Shown: positions 39,354 to 60,921 of the stretch, piece after piece
How positions within the stretch are numbered: the first letter of the stretch is position 1
Layout of the letters: each line of letters opens with the position of its first letter
Origin: Gammaproteobacteria bacterium
GTDB lineage: Bacteria > Pseudomonadota > Gammaproteobacteria > SZUA-140
Direction of reading: 5' to 3'
Assembly (NCBI GenBank): GCA_021648525.1
Contig: JAKISP010000001.1
Span: forward strand, 2,061-66,060
Length of the DNA: 64,000 nt
Position numbers and translations under genes: made by a program
Notes under the pieces: generated by a model
Told to the model about the DNA's origin: nothing
What the model saw: the letters and a program-made list of their open reading frames with translations, nothing else
Databases searched by the model: none

Positions 39354-40061
39354 TTATCGAGAAAGAAATGAAATCATCCACTGCGCAATCAACTGTTCAT
39401 CTGTTCGCTGCTGCAATGAATCGATGCCGGCAGTATAAACTGATGCGCCCAATCGTTTACGACGAAAGCCCATTAAGGCCTCTGCATAAGGTTTTGAGAA
39501 CTCAGGGTGTCCCTGAATCGTAAGAATACTCTCATCTAGCTGAAACATCGCATACGGACAAAAATCACTGCCTGCAATTAATTTAGCCCCTGGTGGCAAT
39601 TCATCTACCTGATCCTGGTGACTCACCAGCACATGGCACACACCATCCATTGGCGTTGCCTCCATCCAGGGCACAGCAGTTGCCACCCGCATCGCGTGCA
39701 CACCCACCCCCCACCCTTTATCAGATTGACTTATTTTACCACCAAAAGCCTGAGCCACTAATTGATGACCAAAGCAGATCGCAATTAGCTTTATTTTCAC
39801 CTTTCGTAACCGAATAATAAAGGCCTGCAATACCCTGATCCACGCATTATCATCATATACACTGGCCTTACTACCCGTAGTGATATAGGCATCACACGCA
39901 TCAAGCGATGCAGGATAATGGCCAGCGACTACATCATAGACCTCATAGCTGAAAGCGCGCGCTAGCGGATGAAATAGAGAGGTGATCATCTCAGGATAGT
40001 CTCCGTACTGGCCCTTAAACTGCGATCTCACCGAGTCACACCGCAAGATCCCAACTTTCAT
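39354..40061 (-). CDS. class I glutamine amidotransferase-like hydrolase (gamma-glutamyl-amide hydrolase candidate, PuuD-like)
   Basis: The GATase1 catalytic Cys context is LIAICFGHQLVAQAFGG, with a His/Glu dyad region (TIQGHPEF). It is divergent from the GS-like ligase gene. Confidence 0.75.
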   Translation of the reverse strand: MKVGILRCDSVRSQFKGQYGDYPEMITSLFHPLARAFSYEVYDVVAGHYPASLDACDAYITTGSKASVYDDNAWIRVLQAFIIRLRKVKIKLIAICFGHQLVAQAFGGKISQSDKGWGVGVHAMRVATAVPWMEATPMDGVCHVLVSHQDQVDELPPGAKLIAGSDFCPYAMFQLDESILTIQGHPEFSKPYAEALMGFRRKRLGASVYTAGIDSLQQRTDEQLIAQWMISFLSR

Positions 40062-40200
40062 TTATTCATGCCCTTTAAAAAATCCATTAAAAAAAACCTG
40101 TTAAGAACATTTGAATTACGCGATAGTATTAGATACTTTATATCTATCGCTCCTATAATAGATAAGCAGTTTCGCACGATAACAAGGAAAAAGCGCCATA

Positions 40201-42950: not shown

Positions 42951-42958
42951 CAAAAGCC

Positions 42959-44140
42959 ATGAAAAAGAGCAGCAATAAATTACACGGTAACTGGAATTAC
43001 CCCACCACCCTGTGGTTCGGCGCTGAGCGTATCACAGAGCTTGCCACCGCCTGCAAAACACTCAACATGCGCCACCCATTACTCGTCACTGACCCCGGCC
43101 TCAGTCGGCTGCCAATGGTGAGTGAGGCGCTCTCCTATAACAAAGCACAGGGCATTCCCACCGGGCTATTCAGTGATATTAAGCCCAATCCAAACGGCTT
43201 AAATATCGAGAATGGCATTAAGTATTACCGTCAAAATAAACATGACGGTGTCATCGCTTTTGGCGGCGGCAGTGCACTTGATGCAGGCAAGGCGATTGCG
43301 CTAATGAGTGGGCAGACACAGCCACTGTGGGCATTCGAAGATACCGGTGATAACTGGCAGCGTGTCGACAGTAACGGAATTGCCCCCATCATTGCAGTGC
43401 CCACCACCTCCGGCACAGGCTCAGAGGTAGGCCGAGCATCACTTATTGTCGATGAAGAAAAACATTGTAAAAAAATCATTTTTCATCCCAGAATGCTACC
43501 CAGCATTGTTATTGCCGACCCACAACTCACTACCGGACTACCCGCCAATATCACCGCCGCAACCGGCATGGATGCGCTTTCCCACAACCTTGAGGCATAC
43601 TGCGCCCCAGCCTACCACCCGATGGCAGATGGCATCGCACTGGAAGGAATGCGCCTGATCAAAGAGTGGCTCATCATTGCCTGCGAAGAGCCACAAAACA
43701 TTGAAGCGCGTAGCCAGATGATGATCGCATCCACCATGGGGGCAACCGCTTTTCAGAAAGGACTCGGTGCAATGCACGCCCTCGCCCACCCAATCGGGGC
43801 AATTTATGATGCACATCACGGCCTGCTCAATGCCATCCTGATGCCCTATGTCTTACTCAGGAACCGCCCTGCAATTGACACTCGCATGCGACACCTGGCA
43901 CGTTATCTCGAACTCGATGGTAACGACTTTGACGCGGTATTCGACTACATCATCACCTTACGCGCTCACATCGGTATTCCTGATGATTTGCGCAGCATTG
44001 GCATCGACGAGCACCGTATTGATGAGATCGCCACCCTGGCACTGCAGGACCCCTCCGCTGCTGGTAATCCTGTTCCACTGACTCAGGCGCAATATTCAAC
44101 ACTACTCAGCGACGCGATCAACGGCAACTTAAAGAATTAA
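42959..44140 (+). CDS. iron-containing (group III) alcohol dehydrogenase
   Basis: Fe-ADH motifs are present: GGGSALDAGKAIA, and His ligands in MHALAHPIGAIYDAHHG. Confidence 0.9.
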   Translation: MKKSSNKLHGNWNYPTTLWFGAERITELATACKTLNMRHPLLVTDPGLSRLPMVSEALSYNKAQGIPTGLFSDIKPNPNGLNIENGIKYYRQNKHDGVIAFGGGSALDAGKAIALMSGQTQPLWAFEDTGDNWQRVDSNGIAPIIAVPTTSGTGSEVGRASLIVDEEKHCKKIIFHPRMLPSIVIADPQLTTGLPANITAATGMDALSHNLEAYCAPAYHPMADGIALEGMRLIKEWLIIACEEPQNIEARSQMMIASTMGATAFQKGLGAMHALAHPIGAIYDAHHGLLNAILMPYVLLRNRPAIDTRMRHLARYLELDGNDFDAVFDYIITLRAHIGIPDDLRSIGIDEHRIDEIATLALQDPSAAGNPVPLTQAQYSTLLSDAINGNLKN

Positions 44141-44304
44141 GAAACCGCTGAATAAAGCCTGCTTTTCAGCATAAAACAAGGGTAATAGCGTTAAAAGAGC
44201 ACGCGCCATTACCTGCTGGTCGAATCTAAAGTGACTGCGTTATAGTTTTAAGAAAAATTGCCGATCAATTCTATAGTCCATTCTATTTCTTAACACCTGA
44301 TAAC

Positions 44305-45210
44305 ATGCTGAAGATATTAAAATTTTTTTCCAAAAAGAGAGCAACAACCAGCCAATCAGCAAGCGTGCGCGTGGTACTGGACAGTGCCCGACTATGCCAA
44401 CTGCTGCCCTATTTTCCCATCGGAGCTAATCTCAGGTATTTTCCAGAATACAGGCAAGAAATAACTCTGGACTCCATCATTATTGCCTACTTAATAAATG
44501 ATGAGGTTATTTACTCAAACAATGATCTCTCCACTACAGATGATAACCATCATTTGATATTGAATGGCGCTATGGTTGATGAAATCAACAACTTTGCTTT
44601 TCTCATTCCTGCCGTCAGCCGCAACGAAACTGAGCTGGACTACGAACAAAAAGAAATACTGGAACAGAGCGGTGGCCTGGCAAAAGGCAATAGCATAACC
44701 TTAATCGGACAGCAAACCGACGGCAAGATCCCATTCATTGACACGCTGGTAACAAAACATACGCGCTTCAAAGAAGGGCATTTCAACAACACTCAAGTGG
44801 TTGCGCTCAATGTCGATCCAACGCTATTAGAACTGAAGGACCAACGAAGTCAAACAAGGTTAGCCGCAAAAATCCCTGCTCTGATACAGACAAAGCTCTA
44901 TAACGAGAAACATCAATGCACCCTTATCGATTTCTCAGAACACACGGTCAAAATCTGCTGTGATGATAATGAAATAATTTCGATAAGCTGCACGAAAGGT
45001 GAAATAATCACCCTCACATTCAACCTTCCCTCCAGTACCACACCTAAAGTCATGAAAGGCAGAGTACTTAAAATTGATGGCCCAGCACTGATTGCCGAAC
45101 TTGAAGAAATACTGGTTGACCAACGATTCAAGAAGCTCACCACCCTCGATATTTTAGAGATTAAAACCAAATTACTTCAGCAACCACTAACATCAACTAA
45201 CACGACATAA
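44305..45210 (+). CDS. hypothetical protein, possible degenerate PilZ-like C-terminal domain
   Basis: This is the first gene of the AT-rich island. RSQTR (RxxxR) is followed about 25 aa later by DFSEHT, resembling the PilZ RxxxR...DxSxxG pattern but lacking the Gly. Confidence 0.45.
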   Translation: MLKILKFFSKKRATTSQSASVRVVLDSARLCQLLPYFPIGANLRYFPEYRQEITLDSIIIAYLINDEVIYSNNDLSTTDDNHHLILNGAMVDEINNFAFLIPAVSRNETELDYEQKEILEQSGGLAKGNSITLIGQQTDGKIPFIDTLVTKHTRFKEGHFNNTQVVALNVDPTLLELKDQRSQTRLAAKIPALIQTKLYNEKHQCTLIDFSEHTVKICCDDNEIISISCTKGEIITLTFNLPSSTTPKVMKGRVLKIDGPALIAELEEILVDQRFKKLTTLDILEIKTKLLQQPLTSTNTT

Positions 45211-45275
45211 ACAACTCATTTAGCCCCGTAAATGCCATCACAACGAGTGATCACACGCGCATCAAAGTCGCCTGT

Positions 45276-45824
45276 TTATCTACCAATAAAATTGCACTGC
45301 TCATCATCGGTTAAGGTGACATTGCTCTGCTCCAGTTTCAATAAGCGTTTTTTTGTTGTCAACCCGCCAGCATAACCAACCAATCGCCCGTCACTTCCAA
45401 TTATGCGATGGCAAGGTATAATTAATCCGATAGAATTTGCACCATTAGCAGCAGCTACTGCTCGAACAGACTTCTGATTATTGATGTTTTTTGCCAATTG
45501 CAGATAGGTTGATGTAACGCCATAAGGAACTTTCATCAATGCGCACCAGACTTTTTTCTGGAAATCAGTTCCTACTGTTAAAAGTGGAATATCAAATTTT
45601 TGTCTATCACCACTAAGATACTCGCCGAGTTGATTCCTTGTTTTTTCCAACACCTCATGATCCTGCTCAACATACTCGGCATTCAGTCCTTTTTTTATCC
45701 TGTTATCTACGGTTATTCTCATTCTTCTATGTTTAAAATCAAGAAGACACAATTGATGCTGAAATGAACCCAGTATCATTTCACCAACCCTGGATTTGTA
45801 ATGTTGTATGTTAATTTGATTCAT
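45276..45824 (-). CDS. ogt: methylated-DNA--protein-cysteine methyltransferase (Ogt/MGMT)
   Basis: The active site is IPCHRIIGSDG and the DNA-binding helix is TYLQLAKNINNQKSVRAVAAANGANSIGLIIPCHR. I chose Met 45824 because its ATG overlaps the upstream gene's TGA (ATGA). Confidence 0.8.
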   Translation of the reverse strand: MNQINIQHYKSRVGEMILGSFQHQLCLLDFKHRRMRITVDNRIKKGLNAEYVEQDHEVLEKTRNQLGEYLSGDRQKFDIPLLTVGTDFQKKVWCALMKVPYGVTSTYLQLAKNINNQKSVRAVAAANGANSIGLIIPCHRIIGSDGRLVGYAGGLTTKKRLLKLEQSNVTLTDDEQCNFIGR

Positions 45825-46600
45825 CTTTCTGTGAATAGACAGCAAAATGATTGCGTGTCTTTAATCTCCGTCAAAATGGCTTTTAGGTTATCATTCGTTT
45901 TGCTGTATACAAATGGCCCCATGCTTATTCTCTTTACCCCAATTCGCTCAAGAATCGAAAAATCTGGCAAATTGGACACTGCCATGACATTCACCGGCAG
46001 AGACACGCTATCGACAAGACACTTGATTTCATTTTCATCTGAAATACAAGGGATGAATATTCCATCGGCTCCCGCTTCTTCGTAAAGCTTTGCTCGTGAC
46101 ATTGACTGGTTTAAAGCATTATCAAGGCCGATGACATAAGGATCCGTTCGAATATTTAAAAAAATATTTATATTTTTTTCGAGAAAATATTGTTTTATCG
46201 ATTTAATTGTTTCAACGAAAATTGTTGAATCGACCAGATTTCTATTACCATCTTCGACGATAGAATCTTCTAGATTAACACCAACCACACCCAACTGACT
46301 TAACAGGACAATATTCTCTATTATTTTGCTATTTTTCCTGCTGTATCCTGCTTCAATATCAACTGTTAGTGGGATAGTGATTTTCGATACAATAGATTGA
46401 ACGACAGAATAAAGTTCATCAAAAGATATCTGTTCACCATCTTCATACCCTAGTGAACTAGCAATTGCAGCACTTGAGGTACCCAATGCTTTAAAGCCCA
46501 TTTTTTCAAACATTAACGCACTTTGTACATCCCACACGTTACCAATCAATAATGACTGTTTTTTCTGGTGTGATAAATTAAACGCCTGGAAGTGACTCAT
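45821..46600 (-). CDS. isocitrate lyase/PEP mutase superfamily enzyme (not bona fide PEP mutase)
   Basis: It has the ICL/PEPM TIM-barrel pattern (LLIGNVWDVQSALMFEKMGFKALGTSSAAIA...VDIEAGY...GVNLEDS...GADGIFIPC). It lacks the EDKxxxxxNS motif of true PEP phosphomutases. Confidence 0.75.
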   Translation of the reverse strand: MSHFQAFNLSHQKKQSLLIGNVWDVQSALMFEKMGFKALGTSSAAIASSLGYEDGEQISFDELYSVVQSIVSKITIPLTVDIEAGYSRKNSKIIENIVLLSQLGVVGVNLEDSIVEDGNRNLVDSTIFVETIKSIKQYFLEKNINIFLNIRTDPYVIGLDNALNQSMSRAKLYEEAGADGIFIPCISDENEIKCLVDSVSLPVNVMAVSNLPDFSILERIGVKRISMGPFVYSKTNDNLKAILTEIKDTQSFCCLFTER

Positions 46601-46705
46601 TATTAATCTCCTTTACTATTGTGAAAGGAGATTATAAATAATTCACTAACGCTATTCATTCACTTAGATTCATTTTTTAATTTTCTCAATGTTTGCGGTG
46701 CTACC

Positions 46706-47218
46706 TCAGGGCGTGTTGTTATGCGCATTTTCACTTCTGGCCCACGAACTGATAATTTCACTGGTTAATTGAAACTTACCGAAATCATATTGAAAAAGCG
46801 CCTCCCTTGAAACAACCTTTATCTCAGCTATTTCTGTACTGAGAGATAACGCCCCTTTAGCCTCAAGATGATAGGCAATTATAAGCTGATTGTTTTTCGG
46901 GAATTTAAAATGACCAATAAATTTGAGCGACATACAGGCATAACCAAGCTCTTCCTTTAATTCTCTTGAAATTGACTCTTCTGGCGTTTCATTTTTTTCC
47001 ATAAAGCCCGTTATGACAGAAAACACCTCTTTCGGCCATTCTGAGTTTCTCGCTAGCACATAATTATTACCCAACTGGACTAGACCAGCCACTACCGGAA
47101 CTGGATTGTTCCAATTGACGAAATCACACCCGTCAGATACACACACATTTTTATAGGCACCATCTATTTCTTGTTTTATAAGTTGACTAGCGCAGTTCGG
47201 GCAAAATTTCATGGCCAA
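46706..47218 (-). CDS. NUDIX hydrolase with N-terminal zinc ribbon
   Basis: The zinc ribbon is CPNCASQ...CVSDGC. The Nudix box is ESISRELKEELGY. Its start is 1 nt from the upstream tautomerase-like stop. Confidence 0.8.
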   Translation of the reverse strand: MAMKFCPNCASQLIKQEIDGAYKNVCVSDGCDFVNWNNPVPVVAGLVQLGNNYVLARNSEWPKEVFSVITGFMEKNETPEESISRELKEELGYACMSLKFIGHFKFPKNNQLIIAYHLEAKGALSLSTEIAEIKVVSREALFQYDFGKFQLTSEIISSWARSENAHNNTP

Positions 47219-47219
47219 A

Positions 47220-47603
47220 TTACACGTTTAATTTGTAGTTCAATTTGGCTTCATCCCCAGTAATACCCCTGAACCCCCAACAGTGTGCAGGCTGTTCTTT
47301 GATTGTTATTTCAACATCGACTGGCGATATACCTATTTCACTCTCAACCCTCTGGAATATCTCTTTAATCAATGCCTTCTGAGTTTCATGCTCCCGACCG
47401 GTCATCATGTTTATTTCAATCACGGTATATGCATCGCTACGCCCACCAGGGTAGTAGAAATCTTCCTTGTCCAGAGGAATAAATCGATGAGCCCTTTTAT
47501 CTTCTGGCATTCCGAGAACAGACTGCATACAACCATGTATCACATCTGATAGCTTAGCTTTAACCGGATTCAATCTTTCTTTAATGCCATATACTACGAT
47601 CAT
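47220..47603 (-). CDS. tautomerase-superfamily-like small protein (tentative)
   Basis: It is 127 aa. The C-terminal half has a beta-alpha-beta tautomerase-like pattern (VIEINMMTGREHETQKALIKEIFQRVESEIGISPVDVEITIKEQPAHCWGFRG), but there is no Pro1. Confidence 0.4.
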   Translation of the reverse strand: MIVVYGIKERLNPVKAKLSDVIHGCMQSVLGMPEDKRAHRFIPLDKEDFYYPGGRSDAYTVIEINMMTGREHETQKALIKEIFQRVESEIGISPVDVEITIKEQPAHCWGFRGITGDEAKLNYKLNV

Positions 47604-47777
47604 AACTATTCCTTAAACGCATATCGCCAGCATCACCAGCGGCAAAAAGTAGAGCGGTGAGGAACGAGGAGGTTCCCTACGTAAAATGTGCCAACAAGGA
47701 CTTAGTTGTTATGCTTGAATAAGTAATCATACTTGCAGTTTGCATACGTGTCTGGCACCAGGTATCAACAATGAAAA

Positions 47778-48461
47778 TCAATCTATACTATTGAGTCTCC
47801 AGCCTATTTCTACCGGCCTGCCCTTATCTGGCCTGCTCAGTATTAGCAAATCTACATGCTTGCCATGAGCATTTCGAGCGTACCATTCAGATTGAATAAG
47901 TAAGTCTTCAAATCCATCGCTAGTGAAATCACCACGTGCCAGCAGCGTTAAATAGACCTCATCCGCCTTTGTAAGTAATTTGAAGATATTTTCTTTCTCA
48001 AGCGTAATTTGAATGCTGGCGTCATAAAATTTAATTGACAGATCTTGCCTTTTGATAGTATCAGCTTTGCTCAATAGCGGCGTTATAGCGGCTGGTAACT
48101 GGTAGATGAAATTTGTGTTCAGTTTGGACGGGAAGTTATTTGTGTGTGCAGTACTAGCTGTAGAATATTTATCTATAGCTTTACACGATACCAGAAGAAG
48201 CTTAAAACGGAAGTAGTCGTAGTCGACTATTTTTGAAATATCGATACCATTAGCCTGTTTGCAGCTAGTAATGACAAGCTTTCCACCTTCTATTGACTGG
48301 TATTCGTAGTTGGATAGAGCAGGCTGACTAATATCCAACTGGCTTACAAAGCTAAATCCAGGAAATTGTTCCTGGTATAGTTTTGCATCAATCATAGTAC
48401 TGCTAGTTGAGCATGCCTGAAGAAAAGCAAAGGACAGAAAAATAATGAATAATTTTCTCAT
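47778..48461 (-). CDS. lipoprotein (candidate immunity/partner protein of the adjacent lysozyme)
   Basis: The lipobox is MRKLFIIFLSFAFLQAC. It starts 5 nt after the lysozyme stop. I recognised no family. Confidence 0.55.
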   Translation of the reverse strand: MRKLFIIFLSFAFLQACSTSSTMIDAKLYQEQFPGFSFVSQLDISQPALSNYEYQSIEGGKLVITSCKQANGIDISKIVDYDYFRFKLLLVSCKAIDKYSTASTAHTNNFPSKLNTNFIYQLPAAITPLLSKADTIKRQDLSIKFYDASIQITLEKENIFKLLTKADEVYLTLLARGDFTSDGFEDLLIQSEWYARNAHGKHVDLLILSRPDKGRPVEIGWRLNSID

Positions 48462-48466
48462 CGTGT

Positions 48467-49096
48467 TTAGGGCGTAGAAGGAGTTGGTTTGGCTGCAACA
48501 GGTATGGTATTGAGCAATTGTTTAACATACTGGTTTCGTGCAGTATTAACATCGGGGCGGTTGGACTCAGTAGCCGCTTTTTTCCAATCACCCGCTTTTA
48601 AAGCTTTATTGAAGCTGGGAAAGCTACCAGTAATCTTCGTAGCACCAAGGTTGAATATCATATCGAACAGCGCTAACTGTACGTTTTTGTGCAGTTTGTC
48701 GAAGTCATCAGGGTAGCCATTAGATTTTTTATAAATGTTAGTTAGCTCAGTGTAAAAGCTATTAATGTGTTTATCCCTTTGTGTATTAATGTCACTGTCT
48801 TTCATAACTAGCGTGGTATGAGACTTGAAACTACTTGCACCATATCGCTGGCCATAGGGTAGTTTGGAGATTTTATCGTATTCAGCCTGCTTCTCAGTAA
48901 GATTTGCCAGTAGAAAGGGAAACTTGTTTTTTAATTTATATAGCGCAACAGTCGCTATAGCATTCCGGTTGGGTATGAGATGACCTATACCAATGGTAAC
49001 TTTGCCTTTGGTATCCAGATAAAGATGACTAAAACGCCCTTCATATTGCTCAATTTTCTTCACAAGCTCCGATTTAATATTGACAGCTAGTGACAT
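48467..49096 (-). CDS. T4-type (GH24) lysozyme / muramidase
   Basis: The catalytic-triad spacing is identical to T4 lysozyme E11-D20-T26: IEQYEGRFSHLYLDTKGKVTIGIGH has E, then D at +9, then T at +6. The C-terminal lobe FNLGATKITGSFPSFNKALKAGDWKKAA matches [27 protein letters not shown]. An AGAGGGGG Shine-Dalgarno lies 5 nt before the chosen Met at 49096. Confidence 0.75.
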   Translation of the reverse strand: MSLAVNIKSELVKKIEQYEGRFSHLYLDTKGKVTIGIGHLIPNRNAIATVALYKLKNKFPFLLANLTEKQAEYDKISKLPYGQRYGASSFKSHTTLVMKDSDINTQRDKHINSFYTELTNIYKKSNGYPDDFDKLHKNVQLALFDMIFNLGATKITGSFPSFNKALKAGDWKKAATESNRPDVNTARNQYVKQLLNTIPVAAKPTPSTP

Positions 49097-49586
49097 AAAT
49101 ACCCCCTCTAAAAAAATTATCATGTGTATATTAACTGATCTTAACTTCTAAGGACACCATGGATGTGACTGTAAGTTTGTAGATGATTGGTGGGGACGCA
49201 CGGTGCTCTGTACTATGCCTTTGCTCCTGGTCATCCTGGCCGACTCATTACCCAGGGGCGCACCGTGGAAAACAATTCACATCCTAATAAACCTTGCTGA
49301 TCACATACCAACAATACCTGTTCGAAAACAGATTTGATATCCTCTAGCTTACTGCTAATGAATTGGAGTACGCAAAAAGAATGACTTTTAATATCCTAAG
49401 GTCATAAGCAGGACGACCATTAAAATCGTTTTTATAACGTGGATAAAAAACACTCAGATCAAGGTTATTTTCACATGAATATCAAAATAAGAATATTTAA
49501 CGTGCCTGAGCGTAATTGATCTTCCAGGCTCAAGGCCAACAATAGGTCTTGACAGTAGTTCGTGCGCATTTATTGCTTTTGTCAGG

Positions 49587-49621
49587 AAAATTAAAAAATC
49601 CCGCAACAAGAGTTTACGGGG
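49587..49621 (-). terminator. intrinsic terminator after island hypothetical gene
   Basis: On the minus strand there is a CCCCGTAA-ACTCTTG-TTGCGGG hairpin followed by ATTTTTTAATTTT. Confidence 0.45.
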
Positions 49622-49656
49622 TCTAAGTTAATAAACTGTAAAAAAGCTATCAAGGA

Positions 49657-50232
49657 TTAGAAAATACTTCGAGCAATATCTATAAACTGCTTAATTGATT
49701 TTTGCGTTTTTAAAGCACGATTTGTACTCAGAGTGAATATTTTCTGATCAGTTGCCCAGGTTAGCTCACTAAGACCTTTTTCACTTCGGCTCTGTTTTAC
49801 ACTTAAAATTGCAGGGAAACCATTAACATCCTGATTTATAGCCTCTTCAATGAAAGCCACACCGCCTTCCGACACTAGAAAATCAAGTTCCTCAAGCCCA
49901 ATAAGCCCGAATTTTTTGACCACAAAAACCCGATTTAACCCCGTCCAGCCCTCTTCTGTATGCCCACCACTTGCAGATGCTCCTAATAAAGTTGCTTGCC
50001 CAAGTACTGATGCGTCCAGGCTTGCCGGTATTATCGTCAGCACGGAAGATATATCTGCCATGGATTTTAATTGTCTCTCTTTATTTTCGTTTGCCTTATC
50101 TAAATAAGACACAGCATCTTCTGTTACATCTATAAAACCTTTTTCCTTTATTTGTGTGAATTCCAGTTTCGCTTGTGTTTTAAGCACATCAGGAACAGAA
50201 TGTTGTTCCAATGGCAATATCGTTATACCCAT
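49657..50232 (-). CDS. hypothetical protein; N-terminus probably disrupted by a frameshift at an A7/T6 homopolymer (see findings)
   Basis: It is a 191-aa ORF. Upstream, an ATG at 50357 opens MKRVNKFTKKFF*. The +1 frame continues LTTACGIVAISFPFYASHAAPGGAVEPAVS into the annotated Met. Confidence 0.5.
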   Translation of the reverse strand: MGITILPLEQHSVPDVLKTQAKLEFTQIKEKGFIDVTEDAVSYLDKANENKERQLKSMADISSVLTIIPASLDASVLGQATLLGASASGGHTEEGWTGLNRVFVVKKFGLIGLEELDFLVSEGGVAFIEEAINQDVNGFPAILSVKQSRSEKGLSELTWATDQKIFTLSTNRALKTQKSIKQFIDIARSIF

Positions 50233-50721
50233 TGAAACGGCAGGTTCTACTGCACCTCCCGGTGCGGCATGTGAAGCATAGAAAGGAAAGCTAATAGCAA
50301 CTATTCCACAGGCCGTTGTTAAAAAAACTTTTTTGTAAATTTATTAACACGCTTCATGATCGTTGTCCTCTTAATTGGTTTTTGAATGTATTTATATTGC
50401 CAGTGCATTGGATTGCAACCTGTGGCACTCGTGCTCCCTAACAGGTACCGACCTGCGCTAGAGGACCAACACTAATGTTTTCCAGACATATAAAAGCCAC
50501 CAATTAGACCTTCATTCCAATGTATGGCGGCGGCACTCCATTTATGATATTAGAGAAGAAATACAGAATAAACCGTTCAATTTAACAACAATATTTCCTT
50601 AACTATTCAACCCCTCCCTATGCGAAAATTCTAGCGTATTCTATGGATGTTACCACCGCTTTCAGCTTGATTTCAGTTTCATTCGCTATGCTATTTTTCA
50701 ATTTGAATGAGCAGGAGATTA

Positions 50722-53726: not shown

Positions 53727-54218
53727 TTAATGGTCGTGATGTTCACCATCTGGCCCATGCGCATGGCCATGCTCAAGCTCTTCTGCACTCGCATCACGAA
53801 TATCGATCACCTTCACATCAAAGTTAAGCGATACACCTGCTAGCGGGTGATTACCATCAACGATGACATCATCACCATCAAGTTCAATCACAGTCACAAT
53901 CATCATCTCACCTTCAGGGCTTTGCGCATGAAACTGCATGCCAACGTTGATCTCTGCATCTTCTTCAAACATATCTTTTGGCACTGTCTGCAGCAGATCA
54001 TTTTCACGCGCGCCGTAACCTTCTTCCGGCGATACGGCAACACTCACCTCATCGCCCGCTACTTTGCCAGCCAGCGCATTTTCAAGCCCTGGCACGATGT
54101 TACGTGCACCATGTAGATAGACAAAGTCACCCTGCCCTTCTGAACTATCAATGAGTGTGCCTTCCTCATTTTTGAGGGTGTAGTCCAATGTTATGACTTT
54201 TTGATCTGCAATTTGCAC
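53727..54218 (-). CDS. slyD: FKBP-type peptidyl-prolyl cis-trans isomerase / metallochaperone SlyD
   Basis: It is collinear with E. coli SlyD (LHGARNIVPGLENALAGK..., IF domain, VDGNHPLAG) and has a His-rich tail HGHAHGPDGEHHDH. I chose the GTG start at 54218 after an AAGGAG Shine-Dalgarno. Confidence 0.85.
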   Translation of the reverse strand: MQIADQKVITLDYTLKNEEGTLIDSSEGQGDFVYLHGARNIVPGLENALAGKVAGDEVSVAVSPEEGYGARENDLLQTVPKDMFEEDAEINVGMQFHAQSPEGEMMIVTVIELDGDDVIVDGNHPLAGVSLNFDVKVIDIRDASAEELEHGHAHGPDGEHHDH

Positions 54219-54573
54219 GTAAAACTCCTTAAAGATATGAAATACAAAATTTTGCGGTGAAAACATCGCTGCACCACTTTATCGCCCAGCATTATAAACG
54301 CAAATACTGATTTTCCATTAAATTTCTATTACTCACGTCGAATAAAGACACAAAAGCACACTGACAACGCTTCAATTAACATAAAAAACTAAATAACAAC
54401 CTGTTTTAATTGATTTTTCTAAAATAACCCTCCTTTTTTACTGGTGGCAACCCTGACTGAACTAAACGTTCCCGACGATCTAATCAGTGAAGCGGCTGCA
54501 ATAGCTGAAAGCACTCGCAACGATGTTTTAGGAAAATAATATAAGACGCATGTAGTCGGTTTTTTCCTCGTTA

Positions 54574-54608
54574 GCCTGACAAGATCCCCCATCTTGCCAG
54601 GCTTTTTT
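54574..54608 (+). terminator. orphan intrinsic terminator upstream of nadB
   Basis: There is a 12-bp stem GCCTGACAAGAT/ATCTTGCCAGGC with one A.C mismatch and a CCCCC loop, followed by TTTTTT. No annotated + strand gene ends here. Confidence 0.5.
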
Positions 54609-54719
54609 GTGCTCAATTTCCAGGCACATGGCCGCCATGATAGATTGACGCGACAAAAGTGTATTTAGCCACTTATAATGGATCGTTCATGATAACTGGC
54701 CAACGGGTAATCAACCTCA

Positions 54720-56378
54720 GTGAGCGATGCAGTGAACACAAGCAGAACCCAACAACATGATGTTCTGATCATTGGCAGTGGTGCCGCCGGCATTAGCATG
54801 GCACTGACCCTCGCCGACAGCACCAAAGTGGCATTGATCGCTAAAGAAGCCCTGACCGAAAGTGCCACATTTTATGCGCAGGGCGGTATTTCAGCGGTAC
54901 TTGATAAAACCGATTCACTGGAATCACATACCGCTGACACCCTTAACGCAGGTGCAGGGCTATGCGATGAAGCAGTGGTGCGCCATGTGGTTAAACATGG
55001 CCCACAAAGCATCCAGTGGCTGATTGATCGTGGCGTGAGCTTTACCAAAGATCTGGACAGCAAAGAGAGTGCCGACTATCACCTCACAAAAGAGGGCGGC
55101 CACAGCCACCGGCGCGTGATACATGCCGCTGACGCCACCGGGCGAGAGATGGAAACAACGCTGGCAGAACAGGCGCGAGCACACCCCAACATCGAGATCT
55201 TCGAGCGCCATATCGCAATCGACCTGATTACCGGCAGTAAGCTTGGCTGGCGCGACAACCGCTGCCATGGGGCCTATATTCTTGACCGCGATAACGACGA
55301 GGTGATCGCCTTTTCAGCACGCACCGTGGTACTTGCCACCGGTGGGGCTGGTAAAGCCTACCTCTACACCAGTAATCCCGACGTCGCCTCTGGTGACGGT
55401 ATTGCGATGGCGTGGCGTGCAGGCTGCCGTATCGCCAATATGGAATTTATTCAGTTCCATCCCACCTGCCTGTTTCACCCGGAAGCAAAATCATTTCTGG
55501 TGACCGAAGCCTTACGCGGTGAAGGTGCCAAACTAAGCCTGCCCGATGGCAGCAGCTTTATGGAGCAGTTTGATCAACGTGCCGAACTCGCACCTCGTGA
55601 TATCGTCGCACGCGCGATCGATCACACCATGAAGCGCTCTGGTGTTGAGTATGTACACCTCGACATCAGCCATAAGCCAGAAACATTTATCAAAGAACAC
55701 TTCCCCACCATCTATCAACGCTGCCTTGAATATGGCTACGATATTACTCAGCAGCCGATTCCAGTTGTACCGGCAGCACACTACATCTGTGGCGGCATTA
55801 TGAGCGATATTAATGGCTGCACTGACATCGATGGCCTCTATGCTGTCGGTGAAGCCGCCTATACCGGCATGCATGGGGCTAATCGGATGGCGAGCAACTC
55901 TCTGCTTGAGTGCCTGGTATTTGCAGAATCAGCCAGCCGCCATATCCTCGAACGACTGCAACAGCCCACATCAATACAAGTGGTACCTGTATGGGATGAA
56001 AGTCGCGTAACCGATTCTGACGAAGAGGTTGTGGTCACCCATAACTGGCATGAACTACGCCGTTTTATGTGGGACTACGTGGGCATCGTACGCACCGACA
56101 AACGACTTCAACGCGCCAAAAACAGGGTTGATCTGCTACAACATGAGATCTCTGATTACTACAGTAATTTCCGCGTCAATAGTGACCTGATCGAACTGCG
56201 CAACCTCACCCTCGTTTCAGATTTAATCATCCGCTCAGCCATTCTGCGCAAAGAGAGTCGCGGTCTGCATTACACATTAGACTACCCCAACTGCAGCGAT
56301 GAACAGACGCCACAAAAAACAATCCTCATTCCTGACAATTACCTCAAGGCACGAACTAGTGTCATCGATAAGACCTGA
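54720..56378 (+). CDS. nadB: L-aspartate oxidase
   Basis: It is collinear with E. coli NadB ([54 protein letters not shown], HYx[46 protein letters not shown]). It starts at a GTG. Confidence 0.95.
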
Positions 56379-56414
56379 TATACTACTATTTTTGCACCAT
56401 AGCCCGACCGCCTG

Positions 56415-57053
56415 ATGACAAATACAGCCACGCCTAATAGCAGCACCGAGATCACCGTCAACGGCACCCGGCTTTCTGTTTCAGCCAACCATTCGCTGAT
56501 TCAGGCACTGTGGAAAACAGGTCACCCTAATTTTAAAAGTGCCAGTTGCCTTGAAGGTGTCTGCGGCTCATGCCGTATCATGGTGAAGTATGACAACCAG
56601 TCTGCAGTGAATATGGCACTCGCCTGCCAGAGCAAGGTCGAACCTGGAATGCAAGTCATCTTCCCTCAATATCTTGAGAAAGAGTCAACCGCACTATTAA
56701 ACCATCGATACAGGCTACAACTATCCAGCGAGAGTAGCGAGCAACTAAAAACAATTTTTCCAGAGGCTGCCGACTGTCGCCATTGCCATGGCTGCACCGT
56801 TGCGTGCCCAAAAGGGATCGATGTTGAACAAGGGATCACCCTCGCCAACGAAGGGAAACTCGCCGCGGCCGGAGATCTTTTTATCAACTGCGTAATGTGT
56901 GACCTCTGCACCACCAGCTGTCCTGAAAACATCGCACCCAATTATGTTGCGCTGTTTGCACGCCGCACGACTGCCGTTAACCAACCAACGCCAACCAACC
57001 TTGCCAGGCGCTTACAGGCGTTACAACGTGGCGAGCTAAAAATTAAATATTAA
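56415..57053 (+). CDS. FrdB/SdhB-like iron-sulfur protein (2Fe-2S ferredoxin-like N-domain + two CxxCxxCxxxCP cluster motifs)
   Basis: The 2Fe-2S motif is SCLEGVCGSCRIMV...LAC. The cluster motifs are CRHCHGCTVACP and CVMCDLCTTSCP. It is 212 aa and starts 36 nt after nadB. Confidence 0.8.
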   Translation: MTNTATPNSSTEITVNGTRLSVSANHSLIQALWKTGHPNFKSASCLEGVCGSCRIMVKYDNQSAVNMALACQSKVEPGMQVIFPQYLEKESTALLNHRYRLQLSSESSEQLKTIFPEAADCRHCHGCTVACPKGIDVEQGITLANEGKLAAAGDLFINCVMCDLCTTSCPENIAPNYVALFARRTTAVNQPTPTNLARRLQALQRGELKIKY

Positions 57054-57058
57054 CCGGC

Positions 57059-58648
57059 ATGAATAACGGCACCCCTCTAGAACAGGCACGGCAAGCATAT
57101 CGCATTAACCTCAACCGCCCACTACGACCATCAGCAATAGACAACCAAAAATTGCTGCAGTACTTTCACCCCGACTACGCCGACAATAGCCGCGTGGCGC
57201 TTAAAGTTGGCGTTAACCGTCATGACCCATGCCACCCACAACTGGCAGCACTATTACAGTCAGACTCGCCGACTATTGAAGCGATGCTCGCAACGGCTAC
57301 ACAGATAGAGACCGAGGTGCTGGTGATTGGATCAGGCGGAGCGGGCTGTAGTGCTGCACTGGTTGCGGGGGAGAATGGTGCGAATGTACTAATCGCCACC
57401 AAACTGCGCGTGGGGGATAGCAATACCGTGATGGCGGAAGGTGGCATTCAGGCTTCCATTGAAGCCAACGACACACCGCAGGCCCACTTTGATGAAACCC
57501 TCAAGGCAGGCCATTACTGTAGCGATAAACGTCTGGTGGAACAGATGGTACTTGATGGCCCAGAGGTAATTCAGTGGCTGATTCAACAAGGCATGCAGTT
57601 TGATCGAGACGAACAAGGTAACCTCTGCACACGTCGCGCAGGCGGCACCTCGGCAAACCGAGTGCTCTACTGCCGTGACTACACTGGCCTGGAGATGATG
57701 CGTGTACTACGTGAGAGCGTACGCCAGCACCACAGGATTACAACCTGTGATTACACTCCTGCCGTCGAACTATTATCGAATAAAGAGGGCCACTGTAGTG
57801 GCGCGCTGCTCTATTCAATTGAAACGCAACGATACACGGCCGTCAAAGCAAAGTCTGTCATCCTCGCCAGTGGCGGGCTTGGCCGCATGCACCTCAATGG
57901 ATTTCCGACTTCCAACCATGTTGGCGCAACGGGTGACGGCCTGGTACTCGCCTATCGGCTCGGCGCACAACTACAGGCACTGGACTCATTCCAGTATCAC
58001 CCAACAGGATTGGCCTGGCCACAAACACTGGCCGGTACCTTAATCACCGAAGGAATACGTTCTACCGGGGCACAACTAGTGAACAACAGTGGAGAACGCT
58101 TTATCGATGAACTCGCACCACGTGACGTGGTCTGCGCTGCGATCATGCGTGAATGTGAAGAAGGACGAGGGATACGCCTGGAAAGCGGTCGACAGGGCGT
58201 ATGGCTCGACATACCCACGCTGGAAAAACAGCAGCCAGGCATCCTGGCACAACAGTTCCCAAAATTCATGGCACTGTGCAATAAAGCAGACATCAATCCT
58301 TACCAGTCACCCTTGCTGATCTGCCCAACATTACATTACCAGAATGGCGGTGTGGTGATTAATCAAGCATGCGAAACAACGATCCCCGGGCTCTATTGTG
58401 CCGGTGAAGTAAGCGGCGGCATTCACGGTAAAAATCGCATCATGGGCAACGCCCTGCTAGAGATTATCAGTTTCGGCAGACGCGCGGGTGCGGCAGCCGT
58501 CGCGCGCCATTCACCAGACAAGAGCCAACTGTTACTCAATCACTTACAGGCATTTCGTCGCGAAATAAAAAACAGCCACGGCGTTAGCGGCATACAGGGA
58601 CCTCTACTATTCCCCCACTACGCCAGCTTCAGCAGGAAAGGGGCATGA
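57059..58648 (+). CDS. FAD-dependent flavoprotein of the fumarate reductase/succinate dehydrogenase/L-aspartate oxidase family (NadB paralogue-like, truncated C-terminus, ~80-aa N-extension)
   Basis: The dinucleotide fold is VLVIGSGGAGCSAALVA. Further motifs are EGGIQAS and the HYQNGGV capping-domain signature. The C-terminal FAD site is GLYCAGEVSGGIHGKNRIMGNALLEIISFGRRAG. It starts 5 nt after the Fe-S gene. Confidence 0.85.
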   Translation: MNNGTPLEQARQAYRINLNRPLRPSAIDNQKLLQYFHPDYADNSRVALKVGVNRHDPCHPQLAALLQSDSPTIEAMLATATQIETEVLVIGSGGAGCSAALVAGENGANVLIATKLRVGDSNTVMAEGGIQASIEANDTPQAHFDETLKAGHYCSDKRLVEQMVLDGPEVIQWLIQQGMQFDRDEQGNLCTRRAGGTSANRVLYCRDYTGLEMMRVLRESVRQHHRITTCDYTPAVELLSNKEGHCSGALLYSIETQRYTAVKAKSVILASGGLGRMHLNGFPTSNHVGATGDGLVLAYRLGAQLQALDSFQYHPTGLAWPQTLAGTLITEGIRSTGAQLVNNSGERFIDELAPRDVVCAAIMRECEEGRGIRLESGRQGVWLDIPTLEKQQPGILAQQFPKFMALCNKADINPYQSPLLICPTLHYQNGGVVINQACETTIPGLYCAGEVSGGIHGKNRIMGNALLEIISFGRRAGAAAVARHSPDKSQLLLNHLQAFRREIKNSHGVSGIQGPLLFPHYASFSRKGA

Positions 58649-59904
58649 CAAAGGCACCGTTAAATCAGCTCTTACGCCACCCAGATAACTGCTGTGCGAA
58701 TTTAGATGAATGGCTCAACGGTGTTGGTGGCAAGGCGCTAGCCATCGCACTAAAGGATCCATCAACACTCATCCCAACCATCAAGGCCGCGGGACTGCGT
58801 GGCCTGGGTGGCAGTGGTTTTCCTGCCTATCGAAAATGGCAAATGATAGCAGCGCAACATCAGCACAGTGAACGTTACCTGATATGCAATGGCAATGAAG
58901 ATGAACCCGGCACCTTTAAAGACAGGTTATTGCTGGAGGAGTCACCACATCAGGTCATTGAAGGTGCATTAATCACAGCACTTGCCACCAACATTAATCA
59001 CATCGCTTTCTACATCAATCCTCATTTGAAACGCGCAACCGAAATACTCTCCAATGCCATCGCGCAATGGCAACAGAGTGATTACCTGCAACAAATATCC
59101 GAGACGCTAGTGAAGGAGCTAGTATTAAAGATCATCCCATCACCCGGCCACTACATCGCCGGTGAAGAAACAGCGGCGATTGAAGCCGTCGAAGGCAACT
59201 TTCCCTTTCCACGTGGCAAACCCCCGTATCCGGCTGTGGCAGGAGTGCATGGCAAACCCACACTGATCAATAACATTGAGACCCTTGCCAATGTATCGCA
59301 CATCGTACGTAACGGTGCCGCGTGGTTCCAGGCACTAGGTGAAGGCAGATGTAACGGCACCAAAATCTACTGTATCAGTGGTGATGTCTCTGATAGCGGA
59401 GCGTATGAATTACCCATGGGCATATCGTTGGAGTCGCTTATTTTCCAGCATGCGGGTGGCATCAGCAACAATCGAAAACTTAAGGCCGTCTTTACCGGTG
59501 GGCCATCTAATTCAATCTTAACGGCAGACGCATTATCGCTTACGCTAGATTTTGATTCACTAAAACAACACAATGCATCCCTGGGAACGGGCGCGATGAT
59601 TGTGATTGCAGAAGGTAACCCAATCATTCCACACATTGCCAAATATCTCGATTTTTTTGCGGCAGCATCATGTGGCCAGTGCCCACCCTGCACCAGTGGC
59701 ACTAGAGAAATGGCGCAGCTCACTCGGAAAATTACCATCGGCAACGCTAACAAACATGATCTTGACTCTCTCATCAGCCTCAGTGAACTCTTACCTGGCA
59801 GTGGTCGCTGCCACCTGATTGATGGAGCTGTCACGCTACTCAAAAGTTCTCTCGGACATTTTCCTAAGGAATATCAAGTATTAATAAACAAGCCTTTTTC
59901 ATAA
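58645..59904 (+). CDS. NuoF-like NAD(H)-binding FMN/[4Fe-4S] subunit (respiratory complex I 51-kDa family)
   Basis: All NuoF hallmark motifs are present: GLGGSGFPAYRKW (FMN/NADH), YLICNGNEDEPGTFKDR, YIAGEETAAIEAVEG, GKPTLINNIETLANV, and the 4Fe-4S Cys motif SCGQCPPCTSGT plus a distal C in GRCHL. Its start overlaps the flavoprotein stop (ATGA). Confidence 0.85.
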   Translation: MTKAPLNQLLRHPDNCCANLDEWLNGVGGKALAIALKDPSTLIPTIKAAGLRGLGGSGFPAYRKWQMIAAQHQHSERYLICNGNEDEPGTFKDRLLLEESPHQVIEGALITALATNINHIAFYINPHLKRATEILSNAIAQWQQSDYLQQISETLVKELVLKIIPSPGHYIAGEETAAIEAVEGNFPFPRGKPPYPAVAGVHGKPTLINNIETLANVSHIVRNGAAWFQALGEGRCNGTKIYCISGDVSDSGAYELPMGISLESLIFQHAGGISNNRKLKAVFTGGPSNSILTADALSLTLDFDSLKQHNASLGTGAMIVIAEGNPIIPHIAKYLDFFAAASCGQCPPCTSGTREMAQLTRKITIGNANKHDLDSLISLSELLPGSGRCHLIDGAVTLLKSSLGHFPKEYQVLINKPFS

Positions 59905-59995
59905 AGCGCTATTTTTGATCACAGGTACCATGCTGATCAACAGCAAAAGAACAAGCCTGCTCCCGCCTTCCCTATTGTGACTCCCCTCGTTAGAG

Positions 59996-60024
59996 TTGAC
60001 CAATAAAACCACAATACTTATACT
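59996..60024 (+). promoter_or_regulatory. candidate sigma70 promoter
   Basis: TTGACC-17 nt-TATACT lies about 75 nt upstream of the 60100 ORF. Confidence 0.3.
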
Positions 60025-60099
60025 GGTTTGACCTGGTACATTCAATATTCGGCCGATCGAGATTGTTAGTAAACAAGTTTTTGAGGAAAAGCAGTACAG

Positions 60100-60921
60100 A
60101 TGAAAACACTGGAACCAAAAAAAGTGGATACCAAAGACATCCCGCTTTGGTTTAAAGAATCATTTAGCCTGCTCATACGCCGCGCACCTCTCTTCATTAC
60201 CTCGATAGCCGCATTTTTTGTCATCCTCTTTTTTATCATTCAAGCCTTTGCAACCCTCGCTGAACAGACACCACCCCTGATATTACTGCCACTATTTCTG
60301 CTATTTGTCGCATTTTCGATGCATTTCTTTTTCAGCGACCTGCTACTACTAGCCTTCTCATCGGATAACTCTCGTAAGATCAATATCAGCCAGCGCGCGC
60401 ACACGCTGATCTCAGAGCAAAAATCTTTGGTGAAGATGACCCTCATGGCCTTCCTCGTTGGCTCAGCCTTCTGGTTAATCAGCCTGTCAATGAATGTGGA
60501 TAAAGACCTGCTAAGTGCCTGCATCAGCGTTGTTGATCGTTTATTGTTTGAAAAAGAGATGCCACTGTTTTTCATGCTAAAACTACTCGCTACCATGCTC
60601 TATTTCATGTTGTTAGCAATGTTCTTATTACGCACCATTTTCTGCATTCCACTGATGCTATTCCATAAGCTTCCCTATGCAGAGGCGCGAGCGCTCAGTC
60701 ACCGAGCGGTCATCATCAACTTTCATACCATGTGCACTGCACTTATTTTATGGGCAATATTACTATTGGGAACAATGGCAGCTGCCAACATACTTGCGTT
60801 GATACTATTCCCATTACTACCCGTCTTTGTGTTTGTCTGCTATCGCAATATTTTTCTTGGACAAGCAGAAAACACACCAGCAACCATGATCAACGCTGAA
60901 CTAGCGACATCGGGTGGATAA
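60100..60921 (+). CDS. hypothetical polytopic membrane protein
   Basis: It is 273 aa with about 6 predicted TM helices. I recognised no family. Confidence 0.55.
   Translation: MKTLEPKKVDTKDIPLWFKESFSLLIRRAPLFITSIAAFFVILFFIIQAFATLAEQTPPLILLPLFLLFVAFSMHFFFSDLLLLAFSSDNSRKINISQRAHTLISEQKSLVKMTLMAFLVGSAFWLISLSMNVDKDLLSACISVVDRLLFEKEMPLFFMLKLLATMLYFMLLAMFLLRTIFCIPLMLFHKLPYAEARALSHRAVIINFHTMCTALILWAILLLGTMAAANILALILFPLLPVFVFVCYRNIFLGQAENTPATMINAELATSGG

Follow-up and report, generated by a model that had tools for sequence, protein, structure and literature searches.

Gene Organization of the Locus

The DNA analyzed here (the window) is a 64-kb stretch from a Gammaproteobacteria bacterium (contig JAKISP010000001.1, positions 2,061 to 66,060), and coordinates given without a locus label refer to it. 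Four genes lie in a row on its plus strand: nadB (54720-56378, 552 amino acids, aa), a gene for an iron-sulfur (FeS) subunit (56415-57053, 212 aa), a flavoprotein gene (57059-58648, 529 aa) and a NuoF-like gene (58645-59904, 419 aa). An earlier note on this DNA had described the array with gaps of 36, 5 and -4 nt, and open reading frame (ORF) analysis found all four ORFs and all three gaps exactly as described. The three genes downstream of nadB, hereafter the trio, are the subject of this study. The FeS subunit joins an N-terminal [2Fe-2S] ferredoxin domain to a helical domain that carries two [4Fe-4S] clusters, and it resembles FrdB, TfrB and HdrC, without a 3Fe-4S site; the flavoprotein belongs to the FrdA/SdhA/TfrA/NadB superfamily; and the NuoF-like protein combines sites for nicotinamide adenine dinucleotide (NAD(H)), flavin mononucleotide (FMN) and a [4Fe-4S] cluster.

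The earlier note had further held that the trio comes with neither a membrane anchor nor NuoE. Domains of the NuoE type or of Sdh/Frd anchors were found neither in the window flanks nor in any annotated related locus, and no annotated locus has a gene for the 2Fe-2S thioredoxin-like protein (NuoE) beside the trio. The trio can therefore still be described as a flavo-Fe-S module that lacks an anchor and NuoE and whose NAD(H)/FMN site is intact.

Domain and Residue Analysis of the Trio

In a profile search, Fer2_4/Fer2 and 4Fe-4S dicluster domains were detected in the FeS protein. SdhB-type Fer2_3, which had been expected, was outscored (18.6 bits) by Fer2 (24.4 bits) and by NuoG-type Fer2_4 (29.5 bits), while the other expected Pfam domains, FAD_binding_2 in the flavoprotein and Complex1_51K, SLBB and NADH_4Fe-4S in the NuoF-like protein, were recovered, and all motifs claimed for the three proteins were located in their sequences. 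The 2Fe-2S cysteines are C45-x4-C50-x2-C53...C71, and two CxxCxxCxxxCP motifs follow, CRHCHGCTVACP (121-132) and CVMCDLCTTSCP (159-170); all twelve cysteines are invariant (alignment A1). Structure prediction and fold search gave a 2Fe-2S ferredoxin domain joined to a helical dicluster domain of the HdrC/SdhB/RnfC type; the two domains were matched separately and with a large overall root-mean-square deviation, so that the fold search favored neither an SdhB-like nor a NuoG-like orientation. The protein has neither the 2Fe-2S, 4Fe-4S and 3Fe-4S cluster set of FrdB and SdhB nor their TIGR00384 score, and it falls far below the TfrB model (NF004898, 24.6 against a cutoff of 385) and has no CCG domain. 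Judged from its predicted structure, the FeS subunit appears to follow the plan of FrdB and TfrB, with a third cluster of the 4Fe-4S kind in place of 3Fe-4S. Its family is small: among 1.84 billion proteins, only 90 cluster representatives reached E <= 1e-10. One natural fusion, P0415 (L072:5250-7433, 727 aa), carries Fer2_4 and Fer4 at residues 6-162 and FAD_binding_2 at residues 293-674. Because both subunits are present in one polypeptide, this fusion supports a direct contact between the FeS subunit and the flavoprotein; no NuoF-like gene lies on the short remainder of the L072 contig. Another candidate fusion, P0032 (689 aa), was rejected, since it shows an internal duplication that we take as an assembly artefact.

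The flavoprotein has FAD_binding_2 as its only domain, spanning residues 87-466, with the motifs HYQNGG (426-431) and GLYCAGE (444-450). No match to Succ_DH_flav_C (PF02910), the C-terminal helical domain, was found, and a conserved extension of 85 residues precedes the domain at the N-terminus. Its best NCBIfam match is TfrA (NF004900, 351 bits against a cutoff of 718), and it is likewise below the cutoffs of the NadB models (TIGR00551, 332.5 against 452.75; NF006567, 266.7 against 629), of the complex II model (TIGR01812, 302.7 against 567.3) and of the Fcc3-type model TIGR01813 (221 against 285 bits). Indeed, none of the three trio proteins passes any curated equivalog model. The AlphaFold2 model of the flavoprotein (predicted local distance difference test score 84, predicted template modeling score 0.88) matches the fold of Escherichia coli FrdA best (template modeling (TM) score 0.70), with SdhA, NadB and flavocytochrome c3 ranked behind it.

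We then mapped the flavoprotein residues onto SdhA, FrdA and NadB structures and scored their conservation over 52 homologs (alignment A2). The catalytic and binding set of FrdA is complete and invariant: H314 (in H314-P-T-G), T330/E331/R334, R355 (ELAPRD), H426 (HYQNGG) and R460 (HGKNR), the matching FrdA positions being H232, T244/E245, R287, H355 and R390. Two further positions are informative. In NadB, a conserved Glu (Glu121 in E. coli) is proposed to bind the amino group of the substrate, and the equivalent position is apolar in Sdh and Frd. The flavoprotein has Ala194 here (TRRAGGT vs. TREGGHS in NadB), which is invariant among the 52 homologs, while FrdA and SdhA have Phe. The histidine that binds flavin adenine dinucleotide (FAD) covalently (FrdA H44, SdhA H45) is replaced by an invariant Asn122 (DSNTVMAEGG vs. 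RSHTVSAQGG), and the FAD of the flavoprotein is thus predicted to be bound non-covalently. Non-covalent FAD goes together in this superfamily with fumarate reduction or aspartate oxidation, while efficient succinate oxidation needs covalent FAD; soluble fumarate-reducing enzymes and NadB likewise have no covalent-FAD histidine. The conserved N- and C-terminal extensions contain an invariant H37-P38-D39, an invariant C58-H59 and a PxLFP tail.

In the NuoF-like protein, Complex1_51K (1.4e-40), SLBB and NADH_4Fe-4S (6.7e-21) are all present, together with GLGGSGFP (53-60), RKW, the acidic NADH motif NGNEDEPGTFKDR and YIAGEETA (170-177). Four cysteines for an N3-type cluster are provided by CGQCPPC (343-349) and C389. 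The domain set and the FMN, NADH and N3 motifs are thus those of NuoF, although the scores on the NuoF equivalog models are below cutoff (TIGR01959, 371.5 against 558.65; NF010120, 311.7 against 389). Comparison with NuoF, HoxF and HydB structures gave 260-274 bits, with the alignment covering the core only (HoxF residues 116-513 of 584; HydB residues 130-528 of 599), and the family is uniform in length (411-426 aa). None of the additions that mark bifurcating HydB/NfnB/HoxF-like proteins was found, namely the extra N-terminal 2Fe-2S domain, the C-terminal ferredoxin-like domains and the NuoE-like subunit, and the protein is a bare core lacking NuoE-like and additional ferredoxin domains. In one relative (L070:12340-13593) the gene is present as two ORFs, one of 208 aa with Complex1_51K and one of 193 aa with SLBB and NADH_4Fe-4S, and this split may be genuine or may reflect a frameshift or a sequencing error.

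Distribution and Gene Neighborhoods of the Trio

Relatives of the flavoprotein were collected by a scan with one genome per species, which yielded 67 loci, all from sulfur-oxidizing or related Gammaproteobacteria (Sedimenticola, endosymbionts of Escarpia, Lamellibrachia, Ridgeia and Riftia, Thiohalomonadaceae, Thiomargarita and others). The complete trio is present in about 50 of them. Identity to the window ranges from 42 to 87% for the FeS subunit, from 51 to 91% for the flavoprotein and from 50 to 91% for the NuoF-like protein, the three diverging in parallel. The trio is a conserved module in sulfur-oxidizing Gammaproteobacteria and some Betaproteobacteria.

The partners of this module elsewhere are genes of the reductive tricarboxylic acid (rTCA) cycle. 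The genes korAB, encoding a two-subunit 2-oxoacid:acceptor oxidoreductase (above the cutoff of TIGR03710, OAFO), come after the trio on the same strand in 24 gammaproteobacterial loci, and in eight further loci a kor paralog lies upstream. In the Rhodocyclaceae metagenome-assembled genome L068 and in the dsr-carrying genome L070, whose neighborhoods are otherwise unrelated, the order is korA-korB-FeS-flavoprotein-NuoF-like, with 5-nt gaps or overlaps; the linkage of the trio to kor survives a change of gene order across classes. In L073, a distant lineage, the order is FeS-flavoprotein-sucC-sucD-NuoF-like, and the FeS gene of L076 is overlapped by sucD. Aconitase and pntB lie upstream in other loci. 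Five loci (L014, L016, L017, L018 and L021) have no NuoF-like gene after FeS-flavoprotein and show an alpha-carbonic anhydrase gene downstream (for example L017:8007-9128, matching PDB 6im0 with E = 4e-63) and aconitase and pntB upstream. Overall, the conserved partners are the enzymes that carry succinate onward, SucCD and then 2-oxoglutarate:ferredoxin oxidoreductase, and other functions of the reverse TCA cycle or carbon fixation.

Downstream of korAB there is usually an 820-aa Fe-S protein and then an RnfB-like protein. The 820-aa protein (L007:13937-16402, directly after korAB) has homologs in at least 19 loci and is named 'por-like' by Rubin-Blum et al. (2019; PMC6315080); apart from a C-terminal single-cluster ferredoxin domain it gave no Pfam, NCBIfam or PDB match. 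A separate observation concerns L073:1-12948, where two paralogous FeS/flavoprotein pairs stand side by side on one contig, one behind HdrA-, FlpD- and Flx-like genes and the other interleaved with sucC-sucD and the NuoF-like gene. Such a pairing suggests that one catalytic core is supplied by two alternative electron-input modules.

A true nadB adjoins the trio only in the window, in its closest relatives (L001, L002, L004, L005 and L006) and in two intermediate members (L077 and L078), the arrangement being held down to about 59% identity of the FeS subunit. L077 is syntenic with the window over cytochrome b561, PepSY, response regulator, kinase, SlyD, nadB, trio, membrane protein, SirB, DsbC, XerD and Ogt genes. 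Because the adjacency is confined to one clade whose whole neighborhood is syntenic, it is a single rearrangement, vertically inherited amid housekeeping genes. Of the four-gene arrangement, whose co-occurrence across genomes the earlier note had raised as a check, the trio is thus conserved and nadB is limited to the clade of the window.

nadB and the Spacer Upstream of the Trio

The product of nadB is a true L-aspartate oxidase. It reaches 941 bits on NF006567 (cutoff 629), collinear over residues 7-540, and also passes TIGR00551 (656 bits); both FAD_binding_2 and Succ_DH_flav_C are present, and the NadB-specific Glu is retained within residues 123-132. Its alignment to the standalone enzyme of the E. 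coli type is collinear, without any added docking element. Since its identity to the downstream flavoprotein is only 34%, the latter is not a recent duplicate of the neighboring nadB.

An extended -10 promoter-like box, TGaTATACT, lies at 56376..56384 on the plus strand, 30 nt upstream of the FeS start codon, and overlaps the nadB stop in this genome. In alignment A3 the spacer block AAGACCTGATATACT is near-invariant about 30-40 nt before the FeS start, and the flanking spacer is variable. The box (TG-n-TATACT) occurs in all six nadB-linked genomes (including L001, L002, L004, L005 and L006) at -38 to -43; L077 has a perfect TGaTATAAT and L078 a weaker box. In the relatives of the window it falls in non-coding spacer, and in lineages without nadB, -10-like boxes stand about as far upstream of the FeS gene. 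These observations suggest that the trio keeps a promoter of its own in the nadB-FeS spacer, which is 36-90 nt long in this clade, and because of the conserved box the co-transcription of nadB and the trio is not assured. In the window nadB itself, the stop codon of the related genes is missing (A3 shows a 14-nt gap), and the frame continues for about nine extra codons to a TGA inside the -10 box (56350-56384).

Upstream of nadB, a consensus scan gave one promoter-like site at 54650..54679 on the plus strand (GCGACA-18-TATAAT, 10/12 matches), a weak candidate, as the scan, which demands a -35 match and so passed over the extended -10 box, found no more promoter-like sites in the region than expected by chance. 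No plus-strand terminator was detected at 54200-60200 by a simple scan. The Rfam scan revealed no known riboswitch or leader in the 453 nt upstream of nadB, and over the whole window, on both strands, no family reached the gathering threshold. These 453 nt contain a 32-codon remnant (54441-54536, plus strand) with 91% identity to the C-terminal end of a tandem truncated-globin gene, which is intact between slyD and nadB in L001, L002 and L077. Most of this gene has apparently been deleted from the window genome, leaving the 453-nt 'intergenic' region.

On the other side of the trio, 195 nt downstream of the NuoF-like gene, lies a gene for a 273-aa polytopic membrane protein (60100-60921, plus strand) with a weak match to the BPSS1780 family (35.7 bits, cutoff 90) and a promoter-like site of its own at 59996-60024. 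Because no lineage but the nadB-linked clade keeps it downstream of the trio, it is an unlikely membrane anchor for the enzyme.

Published Record and Comparison With Known Enzymes

In the symbiont of Escarpia laminata, 'rTCA cycle cluster 2' was reported to contain gltA, ferredoxin, frdx*, nuoF*, korA, korB, por-like, rnfB, por, sucC and sucD, and these genes are transcribed, with transcript levels given in Table S1 of that study (PMC6315080). We take 'ferredoxin, frdx*, nuoF*' to be the trio, because the same gene order is found in L032, which is from an E. laminata symbiont. Rubin-Blum et al. (2019) discuss korAB and list the trio without an assigned function; their bifurcation proposal concerns another cluster, composed of flxABCD-hdrABC, tfrAB and korABCD (PMC6315080). 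In large sulfur bacteria, 'korAB and frdA' were cited as rTCA indicators by Winkel et al. (2016; PMC4914600). A 2026 survey took incomplete fumarate reductases (A or AB) that are encoded beside rTCA genes to imply novel soluble forms, called for 'novel forms of fumarate reductase' and named the five-subunit FrdABCDE of Hydrogenobacter thermophilus as the only well-characterized bacterial NADH-dependent enzyme of the rTCA cycle (PMC13147460). Our searches of the literature for a NuoF-type fumarate reductase returned only unrelated papers, and no biochemical study of the trio was found in them; PDB searches gave no solved structure that combines such subunits. The earlier note, which knew of no characterized system with this architecture, agrees with both searches.

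Among known enzymes, E. coli FrdAB and SdhAB (1kf6, 1nek) share with the trio the flavoprotein fold (TM score 0.70), an identical His/Arg/His/Arg set and TEG loop, and a partner subunit in which a 2Fe-2S ferredoxin domain precedes a helical cluster domain. They differ in that the trio has no membrane anchors or quinone site and electrons would enter through the NuoF-like subunit, in that its third cluster is 4Fe-4S (CxxCxxCxxxCP) rather than 3Fe-4S and its FAD is predicted to be non-covalent (Asn for His), and in that its flavoprotein lacks the C-terminal domain of FrdA and SdhA and has the added 85-aa N-terminal extension. The thiol:fumarate reductase TfrAB of Methanothermobacter (NF004900/NF004898) is also soluble; TfrA is the top curated model of the flavoprotein, and TfrB has one 2Fe-2S and two 4Fe-4S clusters. 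However, the FeS subunit lacks the CCG/HdrB-like thiol-oxidizing half of TfrB (212 aa against about 490 aa in the model), and the predicted donor is NADH, through NuoF, instead of coenzymes M and B (CoM-SH/CoB-SH). The 'tfrAB' of rTCA cluster 1 in tubeworm symbionts offers a related comparison, as L073 carries a paralogous pair behind Hdr/Flx-like genes.

To our knowledge, the NADH-input subunits of H. thermophilus FrdABCDE are not of the NuoF type. As far as that enzyme is described in the survey (Miura et al., 2008, in PMC13147460), it shares with the trio the predicted reaction, the rTCA role, solubility and a core of the FrdA/FrdB type, and by the same description it has five subunits encoded at dispersed loci, whereas the trio consists of three clustered genes with a complex-I-type NADH module. 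The NuoF or 51-kDa modules of NuoEF, HoxF, FdsB and HydB (6hl2, 8oh5, 7q4v) have the same domains, FMN/NADH motifs and four N3 cysteines as the NuoF-like protein. Their partners are NuoG, hydrogenase or formate dehydrogenase, whereas that of the trio is a FrdAB-like pair, and the NuoF-like protein stays below the equivalog cutoffs and has no NuoE-like partner or domain and no extra ferredoxin domains. NadB (1chu, 1knp) belongs to the same superfamily, binds FAD non-covalently and is soluble, but the trio flavoprotein has Ala for Glu121, no C-terminal domain, and Fe-S and NuoF-like partners. Single-chain fumarate reductases (Shewanella flavocytochrome c3, yeast Frd1/Osm1 and the Klebsiella NADH:fumarate reductase) resemble the trio in their non-covalent FAD, in the absence of the complex-II C-terminal domain and in unidirectional fumarate reduction, which is likewise predicted for the trio. 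Unlike them, the trio has no heme or fused flavin-donor domain, and electrons would pass through separate Fe-S and NuoF-like subunits.

Predicted Function and Alternative Explanations

From the conserved residues and the gene context, we consider it rather probable that the trio encodes a soluble three-subunit NADH:fumarate oxidoreductase, which works in the fumarate-reducing direction and serves a reductive TCA branch. NADH would pass a hydride to the FMN of the NuoF-like subunit, from which electrons would exit singly through the N3-type [4Fe-4S] cluster, travel over the FeS subunit's three clusters (a [2Fe-2S] and two [4Fe-4S]) and reach the non-covalent FAD of the FrdA-like subunit, where fumarate would be reduced to succinate at the His/Arg/His/Arg dicarboxylate site. 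The enzyme would provide the fumarate-to-succinate step of the reductive TCA branch or cycle in sulfur-oxidizing bacteria, and its product would feed succinyl-CoA synthetase and 2-oxoglutarate:ferredoxin oxidoreductase. A role as NADH sink is also possible. A class I (Fe-S, FumA/B-type) fumarate hydratase gene, unlinked and 35 kb upstream of the trio (19699-21318, plus strand), would supply fumarate to the predicted reductase. Our best reading is an NADH:fumarate reductase of new subunit composition, whose genes have been listed before and whose function was not assigned.

Several observations weigh against this reading. The flavoprotein is below every FrdA, SdhA, TfrA, NadB and Fcc3 cutoff, so that the substrate assignment rests on residues and context, and its superfamily also acts on urocanate, aspartate and other substrates. 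The 2Fe-2S domain of the FeS subunit scores as NuoG-type over SdhB-type, being slightly closer to the N1b domain of NuoG than to the domain of SdhB, which makes the order of clusters from FMN to FAD uncertain. NADH may not be the universal donor, as FeS-flavoprotein pairs occur without an adjacent NuoF-like gene (L014, L016-L018, L021 and L074). Within the 64-kb window there are no kor, suc or acn homologs (tblastn with KorA, KorB, the por-like protein, the RnfB-like protein, aconitase and PntB gave no matches), the persistent linkage to kor at other loci could signify more than pathway clustering, and the 36-90 nt gaps, in which no terminator is predicted, still allow read-through from nadB.

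The kor linkage raises the possibility of an electron-bifurcating or directly kor-coupled enzyme, in which exergonic electron transfer from NADH to fumarate drives endergonic transfer from NADH to ferredoxin or KorAB to carboxylate succinyl-CoA reductively, and the FeS dicluster domain might replace the ferredoxin (delta) domain that two-subunit 2-oxoacid:ferredoxin oxidoreductases lack. The potentials of NADH (about -320 mV), fumarate (about +30 mV) and ferredoxin (about -450 mV) permit this by our own estimate from standard values. The linkage outlasts changes of gene order from class to class, kor preceding the trio in L068 and L070 and following it in 24 gammaproteobacterial loci; the RnfB-like protein and the 820-aa Fe-S 'por-like' protein are conserved with it; and a similar proposal has appeared in print for the Hdr-Flx/TfrAB/KorABCD cluster of these organisms (PMC6315080; PMC13147460). 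However, the NuoF-like protein is a bare core that has neither a NuoE-like partner nor the extra cluster domains of HydB and NfnB, neither flavin shows an obvious second electron exit, the trio occurs with no kor nearby in the window clade and in several others, and the sucCD linkage fits simple pathway clustering equally well; such an enzyme is unlikely. In a specific form that we hold to be decidedly unlikely, the trio would be a minimal bifurcating core whose NuoF-like FMN splits electrons between fumarate and a low-potential cluster of KorAB or ferredoxin. If this were true, fumarate reduction would pay for carboxylating succinyl-CoA reductively, and two consecutive redox steps of the reverse TCA cycle would be coupled in one complex without Hdr or Etf components. 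There is also a small chance that the same architecture acts on another substrate (a C4/C5 dicarboxylate or enoate, such as mesaconate, or malate/oxaloacetate-type side chemistry) or takes NADPH as donor. The failure to pass any curated subfamily model, the conserved terminal extensions unique to the family and the chemical diversity of the FAD_binding_2 superfamily, whose PDB matches here include urocanate reductase and PAPS reductase, all leave room for this, but the full fumarate-binding set is invariant, and the neighbors consume succinate specifically (SucCD, and the oxidoreductase via succinyl-CoA).

The earlier note had proposed a functional coupling to NadB, with the trio taking electrons from NadB or itself oxidizing L-aspartate with NAD+, which would make NAD biosynthesis independent of O2 and fumarate. 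The short gap of 36-90 nt with no predicted terminator, the stable inheritance of the arrangement down to about 59% FeS identity and the common fold of NadB and the flavoprotein speak for such a coupling. Against them stand the restriction of the adjacency to one syntenic clade, with kor beside the trio in about 32 other loci and two distant operons and sucCD in two more; the invariant Ala at the Glu121 position and the low score of the flavoprotein on the nadB model (332 bits against 453); the collinearity of the window NadB with standalone NadB, which leaves no docking element; and the conserved promoter-like box between nadB and the trio. We regard the coupling as highly improbable. Since the trio travels with reverse-TCA genes elsewhere and stands beside nadB in one lineage only, it is unlikely to be a new partner of aspartate oxidase. 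Its position behind nadB, where it probably keeps its own promoter, looks like a clade-specific accident of genome arrangement, and nadB is probably a neighbor of the module and not part of it. Of the two chemistries first suggested, fumarate/succinate interconversion is favored by the evidence. The earlier note had named, as what would speak against it, an incidental nadB linkage of an already well-characterized enzyme; the linkage does look incidental, and the enzyme is not a well-characterized one.

As an NADH:fumarate reductase, the trio would bear on a wider question, since many chemolithoautotrophs with an rTCA cycle or branch lack either a quinol of low enough potential or a complete FrdABCD for fumarate reduction. 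It is a concrete and testable candidate that joins complex-I-type NADH input to a FrdAB-like core, and it is widespread in symbionts of Riftia, Escarpia and Lamellibrachia, in Sedimenticola, in relatives of Thiomargarita and in some Betaproteobacteria. The current annotations of its genes are 'aspartate oxidase', 'NADH-quinone oxidoreductase subunit F' and 'ferredoxin'. A correct assignment would improve metabolic models and add a new subunit architecture to the soluble fumarate reductases, and it would replace the tempting but unsupported conclusion of an NAD+-coupled aspartate oxidase.

Other Features of the Window

Three further regions of the window were noted. A giant ORF of 2966 aa with FG-GAP, LVIVD and Calx-beta repeats lies on the minus strand at 22798-31698 and presumably encodes a surface or adhesin-type protein. 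The stretch at 44000-50300 has a low GC content (0.39-0.41, against about 0.48 elsewhere) and consists mostly of minus-strand ORFs that could not be annotated, with a phage-lysozyme-like ORF at 48467-49123; it may have been acquired horizontally as an island or be what is left of a prophage. At 39354-44140, a GATase-type amidohydrolase gene (minus strand) is found together with genes for a glutamine-synthetase-like protein, an aldehyde dehydrogenase and an iron alcohol dehydrogenase (plus strand), a cluster that resembles the gamma-glutamyl (puu-like) pathway of amine utilization.

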